Below, one piece after another: positions 18,519 through 21,221 of a stretch of DNA of 52,046 bases. The first letter of the stretch is position 1; each line of letters begins with the position of its first letter. A model generated the notes under the pieces. The model saw nothing but the letters and a program-made list of their open reading frames with translations, did not search any database and was not told the origin of the DNA. This stretch comes from Myxococcota bacterium (GTDB lineage Bacteria > Myxococcota > XYA12-FULL-58-9 > JALHOP01): assembly GCA_041288095.1 (NCBI GenBank), contig JBGGMJ010000001.1:1-52046 (forward strand), given 5' to 3'. The position numbers and the translations under genes are program-made.

Positions 18519-19403
18519 TCAGATCCGGGTGATGGTCGTCGTGATCTGGGTCTGACGCTCCGCGTGCTCGTTCAAGATCTTCAACGCGAGCTTCATGCCT
18601 TCTTTGGCTTCGTCGTAGTTCTGCTTGGCGTTCTCGATGCCCTGCTCGAAGACCTCTTGCATCATCTGGTGACGCATACCCTTCACCTTGAGCTGGTCGG
18701 CTTCGCGCTGTGGGCCGGCGGTCTTGTTGAGGTACTGGCCGGTGGCGCTCACCAACGAGTTCGCCGCCTGGCTCATGGCGACGCCCATGTTCGGGTTGCC
18801 GGCGGCTTCGCCGTACTTGTAGCCAGCGTACGATGCGGCCGCGGCGCCGATGCTCATGGTCAGATTGAAGCCGGCGGAACGGCGCTCGGCGCTGTTCTGA
18901 TCCTCGACCGTGCTCATCTCGGCCCGCTTCGAATCGACCTTGCCCTGCTGCTGCGCATTGCGCAGGCGCTTCGCCAGATCCATGTCGGTCTGCGAGGTGC
19001 GCGCCATCTCGGTCATGGCTTCCCACATCAACGCGGCATCACCGTCGTAAGTGCGCTCGAGAAAGTCGCCGAGCGCGGATCGCTCGGAGCGCCCGAGAAC
19101 ATGCACACCCGCCGAGGGCAGCGGCGGGGCGTTATCGAGGATGGCGCGAAGCTCGGGGTCTTCCGTTCGCGTGCCGATGCGTTCGGTGGCGTCGACGGTC
19201 GCCGTGGGCCGTATGCCGACGCTCGCGGTACCGGATGTGCCGAGACCGCGCACCGCACCACTGCCGGTCGTCACGCGCACTGGAGTGCCGCTCGTCGCCT
19301 CAGGGTCCTGGGCAGCCGGGTCCAAGGTGCCGGCACGCCGCGCGGGGGCTTGTGGGTCAACGGAGGTGTTCCGGAGTCCCCGGTCTCGAATATCGACGGA
19401 CAT
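18519..19403 (-). CDS. Hypothetical protein with type III translocator (SctB/YopD-like) architecture
   Basis: Low-complexity S/T/P/G N-terminus without a signal peptide, a Q/R/K-rich helical block, a small-residue hydrophobic segment (FNLTMSIGAAAASYAG) and an amphipathic C-terminal helix (MKLALKILNEHAERQTQITTTITRI). The gene looks real; the family call is inference. Confidence 0.55.
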   Translation of the reverse strand: MSVDIRDRGLRNTSVDPQAPARRAGTLDPAAQDPEATSGTPVRVTTGSGAVRGLGTSGTASVGIRPTATVDATERIGTRTEDPELRAILDNAPPLPSAGVHVLGRSERSALGDFLERTYDGDAALMWEAMTEMARTSQTDMDLAKRLRNAQQQGKVDSKRAEMSTVEDQNSAERRSAGFNLTMSIGAAAASYAGYKYGEAAGNPNMGVAMSQAANSLVSATGQYLNKTAGPQREADQLKVKGMRHQMMQEVFEQGIENAKQNYDEAKEGMKLALKILNEHAERQTQITTTITRI

Positions 19404-19503
19404 GCTCCACTTATCCACTTCGGCGGCGGATAGGTGATTATGTCACGCTGCCAGGACGTCATCACTAGGAATCGACTGCGCAATCGCGGCGCTACGGTTC
19501 GAC

Positions 19504-19528
19504 ACAACAGGCCCTGCGACCTGCCGAT
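19504..19528 (+). promoter_or_regulatory. Candidate promoter ACAAC-N14-GCCGAT
   Basis: ACAAC aggccctgcgacct GCCGAT, intergenic and oriented toward the CDS at 19637. Confidence 0.45.
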
Positions 19529-19636
19529 GATGGGAGCACGGTCGTATCGGCCATCAGCCCCAGCTGCGTCTTTCGAGCAGTTATTCGGGCTGGGACGGGG
19601 CATCGGGCAATGCGTAACACGGCGAGCGAGAGCGGC

Positions 19637-19957
19637 ATGTGCGAGCTTTGTTGCAAGCTCATCAACTCGGAAGACGATGTTGTGGGCGTGGATCTGGTCG
19701 CGGAGCAAATGGCATCGACGGGGACCTCGAAGGCTCACCGTCACTGCGCCTCGCTCTCGGTCAGTCTTGGCTCGTTGGCCGAGGCCCGGCAGCTCCTGGC
19801 GCCGCGCACCAGCCGTCAGTTGCTCTCACCCGAGCAGCAGCCCGCACGCCGCGAAGCGCGCACCATCACCATTCGGCCGGCCCGGGTGGTCATCAACACG
19901 ATGCACACCGGCGCTCTGTTCACGCCCGGTCAGCGTACCGCCACCCGCCCGGCGTAA
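19637..19957 (+). CDS. Small hypothetical protein with CxxC...HxxC (possible Zn site)
   Basis: MCELCC...KAHRHC; GAGAG upstream of the ATG; third codon positions are mostly G/C. Confidence 0.55.
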   Translation: MCELCCKLINSEDDVVGVDLVAEQMASTGTSKAHRHCASLSVSLGSLAEARQLLAPRTSRQLLSPEQQPARREARTITIRPARVVINTMHTGALFTPGQRTATRPA

Positions 19958-20045
19958 CTTGCCTCCTTGGAAATAGCGCGGCCCGCGAACGGGTTCCGGT
20001 TGGCATGGCATGGCCAGCCGCCTCACTCGTGCTACAAGCGGCGCC

Positions 20046-21221
20046 ATGACGCCCAGACACCGACGCGCGGCCATCGCGCTTCTCGTGCTGGCGGCCTTGG
20101 GCTGCCTGGACACGGTGTACCTGCTCCTCGAGCACATGCAGGTCCGCACCACGGGGGCTGGCTCCGGCGCCTGTGACGTCAGCGCCCGCTTCAACTGCGC
20201 GGCAGCCGCGCTCTCGAGCTACGCCGAGCTGTACGGGGTCCCCATCGCCGGGCTGGGCCTCGCGTATTACATCGGCTTTGCCGTGCTCGTGCTCATGGCC
20301 ATGCGCTCCGAGGCCCGCCGGCCGGTCATCGTACCGGCCCTCGTGGCCCTGACCGCGCTCGCGACCGCGTATTCGGTCTTCCTCCTAGTGGTGTCGCTCA
20401 CCCGCTTGTCGGCGCTCTGTCCGGCCTGCTGCATCACCTACGCGGTCAACCTCGCGACTTTCGCCGGGGCATTGTTTTGGGCGACGCCGCACCTCGGGGC
20501 GAGCTTGCGCACCTTCGACCGTCGCGCGGGCGAAGCAGCGGCCCCGTTCGCGACCTTCGCGCTCATTCTCGTCGCCGTCACCGCGGGCGCGACCGTCTGG
20601 TCACATCGCCCCATCACCGCCCCCAACCCAGTCGCCGCCCCGGCGCCACCCAAGGCACCTGCGCTATCGACCGCGGAAGTGAACGCCATAGCGCACGCCG
20701 CTTACGCACCCTCGATGGGCCCGGCCTCGGCCAACGTGGTCCTGACGGTCTTTTCGGACTTCGAGTGCCCGCACTGCGCGAGGTTCGCGGCCACCCTGCG
20801 CCGCCTGCATCGCAACTACGGTGACGCCCTACGCATCGAGTACCGCAATTACCCTTTGTCGATGCACAAGAACGCCGAGCTCGCGGCGCGTCTGGGCGTC
20901 TGCGCCGAGCAACAAGGTAAGTTCTGGGGCTTCCACGATCTCGTGTTCGAAAAGCACGACCAGCTCAACCTCGAGGCCCTGGCCGAGATCGCCGATGACG
21001 CCGGTGTCGATGCGCGCGCCGCCATGGCCTGCGCGGATCGGTCCGACGTCAAGCAGATCATCGCCGCGGACATCGCCGCCGGAGAGAAGCTCGGCATCGA
21101 AGGCACGCCGGCGTTCGTCCTGAACGGCGAGCTTACCGTTGGCGCGGTCATCTACGACGAGCTCGAGCGGCGCATCGGCAAGCTGTTGCAGAGCAACGAG
21201 CGCGCCCAGCTCGCTCCTTGA
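20046..21221 (+). CDS. VKOR - DsbA/thioredoxin fusion protein
   Basis: VKOR loop CDVSARFNC, SSYAELYGVP and TM CPAC; thioredoxin-fold FSDFECPHC and GTP cis-Pro motif. Confidence 0.92.
   Translation: MTPRHRRAAIALLVLAALGCLDTVYLLLEHMQVRTTGAGSGACDVSARFNCAAAALSSYAELYGVPIAGLGLAYYIGFAVLVLMAMRSEARRPVIVPALVALTALATAYSVFLLVVSLTRLSALCPACCITYAVNLATFAGALFWATPHLGASLRTFDRRAGEAAAPFATFALILVAVTAGATVWSHRPITAPNPVAAPAPPKAPALSTAEVNAIAHAAYAPSMGPASANVVLTVFSDFECPHCARFAATLRRLHRNYGDALRIEYRNYPLSMHKNAELAARLGVCAEQQGKFWGFHDLVFEKHDQLNLEALAEIADDAGVDARAAMACADRSDVKQIIAADIAAGEKLGIEGTPAFVLNGELTVGAVIYDELERRIGKLLQSNERAQLAP

Follow-up and report, generated by a model that had tools for sequence, protein, structure and literature searches.

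A stand-alone SctB-like gene in Myxococcota is an isolated duplicate of a gene in a translocon operon

The locus

The window, a stretch of 52,046 nucleotides from a genome of the Myxococcota, contains on its minus strand a gene that we call P0001. It has the following features:

18519..19403, minus strand: stand-alone SctB-like (minor translocator-like) gene P0001, 294 aa, with its ATG at 19403 and its stop codon ending at 18519
19161..19403, minus strand: disordered, fast-evolving N-terminal region, residues 1-81, with pLDDT below 50 and few identities to the operon copy
19113..19130, minus strand: PxLP motif, residues 92-97, candidate class II chaperone-binding site
18822..18878, minus strand: weak hydrophobic segment, residues 176-194, aligned with a far more hydrophobic segment of the operon copies
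18720..18794, minus strand: second, weakly hydrophobic helix, residues 204-228
18522..18713, minus strand: long C-terminal helix with an amphipathic stretch near residues 266-279, the best-conserved part of P0001
17727..18476, minus strand: map, type I methionine aminopeptidase, the syntenic neighbour
19412..19440, minus strand: two-box site TAATCACC-N16-GGATA, candidate promoter similar to that of the translocon operon, in 4/4 orthologues with a free spacer
19448..19461, minus strand: additional conserved boxes TGACG-N2-[CT]TGGCAG, in 4/4 orthologues

The sequence-only reading of this DNA had described an ORF of about 294 aa that adjoins map and lies far from any secretion cluster, and each of these points was confirmed. 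The map gene, which scores above the TIGR00500 cut-off, begins after a gap of 42 nt, and no type III gene was found among the larger ORFs of the window (38 scanned with Pfam and 15 with NCBIfam). P0001 has no SctE or chaperone gene alongside. Its neighbours in the window are housekeeping or uncharacterised genes, namely map, a helicase, ferrochelatase and a VKOR-thioredoxin fusion. The gene order vkor-orphan-map-helicase-hemH is kept in all four genomes of the genus, and in one of these (G001) the orphan and SctV share a contig and lie about 132 kb apart. The association between P0001 and map looks positional only.

Ser, Thr, Pro and Gly make up 43% of residues 1-81 of P0001 compared to 23% of the remainder. 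An AlphaFold2 model built from a 26-row alignment had a mean pLDDT of 57 and a pTM of 0.27, with pLDDT below 50 over residues 21-87. The N-terminus is thus disordered and rich in these four residues as had been claimed. From what is known of the family, this region is predicted to carry a type III export signal. The model contains helices at residues 105-117, 121-201, 204-228 and 231-293, and the motifs quoted in the earlier reading begin at residues 92, 132 and 276. The second weakly hydrophobic helix of that reading corresponds to residues 204-228, where the Kyte-Doolittle peak is about 0.5, and its C-terminal helical part to residues 231-293, where pLDDT is 63-85 per block across residues 231-294 and the hydrophobic moment reaches 0.58 at residues 266-279. 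According to this model, P0001 carries the C-terminal amphipathic helix expected of SctB minor translocators. Neither a Pfam scan nor the model revealed an added domain. In the structural comparison that had been proposed, Foldseek returned no match at E 0.001, and a VIA fold search gave a best Z of 9.3 among generic helical bundles.

P0001 is a duplicate of a gene in a translocon operon

The genome contains a single paralogue of P0001 on a separate contig (G000:C203:38242-39285), encoding a protein of 347 aa that is 50% identical to P0001 across 174 aa (pairwise E 2e-54). This paralogue is the fifth gene of a co-oriented run that begins with a 393-aa tip-like gene, a gene for a tandem TPR protein and two SseC-like genes. 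It is followed by a 704-aa low-complexity gene and a prenyltransferase-like gene, and then by ECF sigma and lexA genes. The tandem TPR protein matched TIGR02552 (LcrH/SycD) with 130.6 bits (cut-off 104.8), and the two SseC-like proteins matched PF04888 with E 8.5e-11, above the cut-off, and E 0.0023. The paralogue itself matched NF052420 (SseD) with E 2.6e-5 and 24 bits, which is below the cut-off of 130. The run matches the tip-chaperone-major-minor order of translocon operons, as this order is outlined in PMC10664548. The first gene is inferred to be tip-like from its position and a weak likeness; in a fold search nothing matched its model at E 0.001, and IpaD chains (E 0.13-0.34) ranked below pore-toxin helices. 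A search for paralogues beside sctE- and SycD-like genes had been suggested, and it was this search that led to the sister copy behind the SycD/LcrH chaperone and the two SctE-like genes, in agreement with the proposal that P0001 is a stand-alone paralogue of a translocator gene. P0001 is an isolated, genus-level duplicate of the gene behind the SctE-like genes in the translocon operon.

This operon (L034:2482-15833, G000:C203) is found order-wide and consists of tip-like, tandem (double) SycD, SctE and SctB genes, a long low-complexity gene and a DMATS-like prenyltransferase gene, with a convergent ECF sigma gene and lexA. The presence of a prenyltransferase-like gene within a translocon operon is unusual, and its product could modify a secreted part.

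Using a profile of the family, we found it at 26 places in 19 of the 22 genomes of the order. A sample of 284 genomes from the rest of the phylum, in which no more than 8 candidates per genome were scored, gave no match to the family. In all 19 family-bearing genomes one copy immediately follows an SctE-like gene. The chaperone-SctE-SctB order can be seen in 17, and in the other two a contig end cuts the stretch. There are seven additional copies: the four syntenic orphans between vkor and map (G000-G003), a second isolated copy in G003, one in G015 beside a single SycD gene and one in G010 in tandem. An SctV match was present in all 22 genomes of the order, above the hrcV cut-off in 20, the two below it being fragmentary. 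Homologues of P0001 and type III genes therefore occur together, with SctV found in 19/19 genomes that carry the family. Among 1.84 billion representative proteins, 241 matched at E 0.001 or better, so the SctB-like family is small. Two word-index protein searches returned 19 and 20 relatives; no Pfam family or informative name was attached to any of them.

Two of the additional copies have features of their own. In G010 the module of SctB and its downstream gene is duplicated in tandem inside the operon (L056:7115-13965). The second isolated copy in G003 (L036:1920-2666) has a normal hydrophobic segment, with a best 19-residue Kyte-Doolittle mean of 1.90, and a sigma-54-like GG-N10-GC site upstream that was spotted by eye.

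Identity of the family

No SctB model of Pfam or NCBIfam matched P0001, and a search of the genome with PF05802 found neither P0001 nor the operon copy. NF052420 (SseD) was matched by 9 of the 26 family members, all below the cut-off (best E 3.8e-6), NF011888 (SseD) by one member, and SseD weakly by 1 of 44 distant relatives. No family member scored above any curated SctB cut-off. A feature search of the Atlas, limited to named clusters, placed P0001 nearest to clusters with scores of 0.92-0.95 and 188-208 of 256 features in common; 8 of the 10 best agree. These clusters carry SctB2 (13-24% of members), IpaC_SipC (13-16%) and, in one of them, YopD (79%). A structure search of the Atlas with P0001 named no family. 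The two PDB matches obtained with the family profile, at E 0.79 and 3.4, were unrelated and were discarded, and no convincing match to an unrelated family emerged from any profile. Based on the Atlas and profile matches and on gene order, SctB homology is very likely, although no curated cut-off was passed.

P0001 resembles the SctB minor translocators YopD, PopD, SseD, IpaC/SipC and EspB, as these are described in parts of PMC3443056 and PMC9993115, in its size, disordered N-terminus, N-terminal Pro/Leu motif, single hydrophobic segment and C-terminal coiled or amphipathic helix. Its sister copy stands in the tip-chaperone-SctE-SctB order and its family has the weak SseD matches. Unlike them, P0001 is isolated, passes no curated cut-off, has a very weak hydrophobic segment and has PxLP in place of P/VxLxxP, while the chaperone of its operon sister is a tandem (double) SycD. 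The canonical chaperone-binding motif of minor translocators is P/VxLxxP, according to the portion of PMC3443056 that treats it. This motif is missing from P0001 and the operon copy and present in 1 of 28 family rows. By contrast, PxLP is kept in 27 of the 28 rows, and P93 is invariant in alignment A3. The partial PxL motif of chaperone type that had been noted at residues 92-97 is thus real and family-wide as PxLP, but it is not the canonical form.

Injectisome genes are dispersed in the host genome

Genes for a non-flagellar type III export apparatus are present in the host genome. Contig C92 contains SctR, S, T, Q, O, N, L, J and I-like genes, broken up by unrelated genes; SctU is on C41, and SctV is alone on C31, above the hrcV cut-off. 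SctR, S and Q were also above their cut-offs, and T, U, N, J, L, O and I-like genes gave matches. Purpose-built profiles (E below 1e-8) revealed four tip-like loci, three SctE-like, two SctB-like and seven SycD-like genes. Needle matches were below the cut-off, with a best E of 7.7e-5 and a short candidate on C46, and no secretin in the genome reached the SctC cut-off. The matches above cut-off thus do not add up to a complete injectisome. Flagellin, which 3/3 genomes of the same genus have, was not found in this assembly, which is 90% complete.

G008, G009, G011 and G020 likewise contain SctE-like genes that stand by themselves; the 5-13 kb inspected there yielded no match for SycD, tip or SctB. 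Isolation of translocon genes is thus a habit of the order and not a one-off. The earlier reading had called P0001 an orphan. It is isolated, but the surprise was overstated, as injectisome genes here are scattered over many contigs.

Other genes of the genome bear on this dispersal. Tip-like or needle-like genes at G000:C181:33054-33965, C82:35586-36665, C210:21230-22954, C196:70-885, C10:81060-82298 and C46:2446-2640 have a common C-terminal helix, and some stand beside SycD-like or TPR genes, which suggests a varied filament or tip repertoire. On C94 (L058:672-2386) a SycD-like gene precedes a divergent SctE-like gene that has lost strong hydrophobic segments (best 19-residue Kyte-Doolittle mean 1.26). 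The interrupted core type III cluster (L059-L060, G000:C92, and L063:2188-3072) includes a gene that is FliO-like by position and size, and a sigma factor gene of the FliA/WhiG family lies 11 kb from this cluster.

Evolution of the orphan and its membrane segment

In a 28-row tree, from which the copies of G006, G010, G013 and G018 were left out, the four syntenic orphans and two proteins of unplaced gene context formed one clade (100/98) on a stem of 0.69 substitutions per column. This clade was nested with the operon copies of the genus in a larger clade (100/99). The orphan is intact in 4/4 genus genomes at dS 0.65-1.08. Across the six pairs, Nei-Gojobori dN/dS ranged from 0.18 to 0.39 over the whole gene and from 0.12 to 0.31 over the core; core values of the operon copies were somewhat lower, at 0.10-0.24. 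The orphan is under purifying selection.

These results bear on the possibility that P0001 is a duplicate that is redundant or in decay, or that it is a coiled-coil protein with a merely compositional likeness to SctB. The lack of a direct HMM match for P0001 and the slightly higher core dN/dS of the orphans would fit such a reading. However, the gene is intact in every genome of the genus at this dS with dN/dS well below 1, its upstream boxes are conserved, its similarity to the operon copy is strong, and its family stands behind SctE throughout. We consider this reading largely refuted and very improbable.

Between orphan and operon copy, 18 of the first 100 residues are identical compared to 44 of the last 54 (81%). 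Gene conversion as a source of the C-terminal identity was not indicated in three of the four genomes, where dS between the copies was 0.70-1.12 over the last 65 codons; in G003 it was lower, at 0.37, over only about 40 synonymous sites.

We compared membrane segments by KD19, the best 19-residue Kyte-Doolittle mean. The Ala/Gly hydrophobic segment that had been predicted is present at residues 176-194 but is weak, with a KD19 of 0.77. The four syntenic orphans had values of 0.62-1.03 versus 1.04-2.33 in 15 operon copies, with 1.81-1.94 in the same genus and 1.81 in P0001's own operon copy. Because the value of P0001 is below those of all 88 near-full-length relatives among 150 representatives (minimum 0.78, median 1.63), its entry into a membrane is doubtful. 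The four orphans are kin, so the loss of hydrophobicity counts as one evolutionary event. The two orphan-clade proteins of unplaced gene context had values of 1.08 and 1.13, overlapping the lowest operon copies.

P0001 might be a non-inserting SctB derivative that keeps the chaperone motif and docking helix and caps the tip, stops the pore, acts as a competitor or regulates translocation by titrating the chaperone. The low KD19 of all four syntenic orphans, the 81% identity that persists over the last 54 residues, the long stem branch and the orphan's own upstream boxes are consistent with this, as is the regulatory side-role that YopD and its chaperone are known to have. Against it, the segment has kept its full length and its richness in Ala and Gly, the two other proteins of the orphan clade overlap the operon copies in hydrophobicity, and a minor translocator candidate with no predicted TM, LI1159 of Lawsonia intracellularis, has been described as secreted and chaperone-bound nonetheless (PMC10664548, in part). 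Injectisome TM segments are in any case just moderately hydrophobic according to a section of PMC9993115. A non-inserting role is conceivable, and we think it rather unlikely.

P0001 could also be an effector derived from a translocator, or a membrane-active protein in its own right, that leaves through the type III system and acts apart from the translocon. This would account for the isolated position and the diverged N-terminal third, and there are other isolated SctE-like and tip-like genes in the genome and the order. But P0001 has no added domain, its conservation is centred on the C-terminal helix expected to touch translocon partners, and the weak hydrophobic segment speaks against independent pore formation. 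This explanation is improbable.

SctE is duplicated in the same four genomes as the orphan, and the two SctE genes of the genus form one clade with a support of 0.986 (last 330 residues, C94 copy left out). Two translocator pairs are therefore possible, as reported for Chlamydia in part of PMC4068993. No support emerged for a general rule by which the second SctE is strictly paired with the orphan; additional SctE copies occur elsewhere with a single SctB. The co-duplication of SctE and SctB thus counts as a single event in related genomes and is no evidence of pairing.

Upstream DNA

Two promoter elements had been proposed upstream of P0001, GCCGAA as a -10 half (19419-19424, minus strand) and a GTGA-N5-TCAC inverted repeat (19434-19446). 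Both are located there, but each is intact in only one of four aligned orthologous upstream regions, and we abandoned them. When the 100 upstream bases were shuffled 500 times, 429 of the shuffled sequences contained an inverted repeat of 4 bp spaced by 3-8 nt, which is chance level, and 62 contained GCCGA. Membership in a sigma-28-like regulon was also rejected. The pattern GCAAC-N16/17-CGATA has 133 sites at N16 and 60 at N17 genome-wide, versus about 8, and the best site upstream of P0001 ranks 34,679 of 11.7 million, approximately chance for a 250-nt window.

The conserved two-box site lies 8-9 nt before the ATG and there is no consistent Shine-Dalgarno, suggesting a nearly leaderless message. 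A sigma-54 reading of the TGGCAG box was discarded, as by inspection none of the four sequences has GC at -12. Upstream of the translocon operon, AAC-N17-GTGTA is exact in 11 of 14 loci across the order (L034 upstream of 15069 and 10 others), and it has 15 occurrences in the genome; it is a candidate target of the ECF sigma adjoining the operon. The counterpart at the orphan is CAC-N17-GGATA in 4/4. A matrix built from eight AAC-N17-GTGTA sites picks the orphan's conserved site, in the same register in three of four genomes and shifted by 2 in one. Among 4588 crude gene calls this matrix ranks the orphan 161 and SctE genes 12 and 43. It is possible that the orphan is co-regulated with the translocon operon.

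A possible alternative translocator

On balance, we think it somewhat probable that P0001 is an alternative pore subunit of the minor translocator (SctB) type. By analogy with known minor translocators (PMC3443056 and PMC9993115, in the parts that deal with them), a SycD-type chaperone would bind P0001 at the PxLP motif. P0001 would then be exported via the injectisome, and its conserved C-terminal helix would dock it on the tip/SctE assembly. We propose that, with a segment too polar for unaided insertion, it would enter the target membrane only with the help of SctE. P0001 could replace or mix with the operon copy and thereby change pore properties or target range. Of the earlier suggestion of a translocator paralogue or pore-former, the paralogue stands, and an independent pore-former was an overstatement given a membrane segment weaker than that of the operon copy.

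The protein class and duplicated translocators are already known. As far as the sources below describe these systems, one close parallel is Chlamydia, where CopB/CopD and CopB2/CopD2 form two translocator sets for one injectisome (PMC4068993) and the type III genes are spread across several loci (PMC3459982). There the second SctB adjoins the second SctE (PMC4068993), whereas here the main operon contains the second SctE in tandem and the second SctB stands by itself. Lawsonia LI1157-LI1159 has the same chaperone-SctE-SctB order in a system of deltaproteobacterial type; compared by description, it differs in having a single operon-linked copy and in belonging to an intracellular pathogen (PMC10664548). 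The 'Myxo' NF-T3SS of Myxococcales and the needleless T3SS* of Myxococcus xanthus, from the same phylum, share a non-flagellar export apparatus and sorting platform and, like this genome, lack a dedicated secretin, here judged by the cut-off (PMC3459982, PMC12075869). Myxobacterial type III systems are described there as being without needle, tip or translocon. Unlike them, the order studied here has SycD, SctE-like, SctB-like, tip-like and needle-like genes.

With needle-, tip- and translocon-type genes, members of this order may be capable of injection into prey or hosts. Ralstonia is also said to have paralogous translocators that serve a single system (PopF1/PopF2); these reportedly belong to the HrpF/NopX family, which is unrelated to SctB, whereas P0001 is SctB-like. 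In the literature we found neither a translocon in this lineage nor an isolated SctB paralogue with a polar membrane segment, and the word 'translocon' is absent from the main text of two Myxococcota genome surveys, whose supplements could list such genes.

A conserved isolated SctB copy that keeps its docking helix and has lost hydrophobicity forms, with the operon copy, a natural pair for probing the membrane segment of a minor translocator. The pair also lets one ask whether one injectisome uses alternative pores. A broader idea, which we offer tentatively and rather doubt, is that this uncultured order has a translocon-bearing injectisome assembled from dispersed, interchangeable tip, SctE and SctB paralogues, with P0001 as an SctB under its own regulation, whose polar segment would enable the cell to swap or gate its pore for a different target, possibly non-animal prey.

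A divergent small ORF

An unannotated ORF of 106 aa at 19637-19957 (plus strand) is divergent from the orphan and has no Pfam or NCBIfam match. A search of 19300-20100 with Rfam gave one chance match (E 2.3), and a riboswitch in the conserved intergenic block was rejected. The 107-nt leader of the ORF, which has no Rfam match, is highly conserved and contains inverted repeats. The ORF is present in 4/4 genus genomes with a coding-like substitution pattern, and a strong sigma-28-like site (rank 96) at 19504-19529 faces it.
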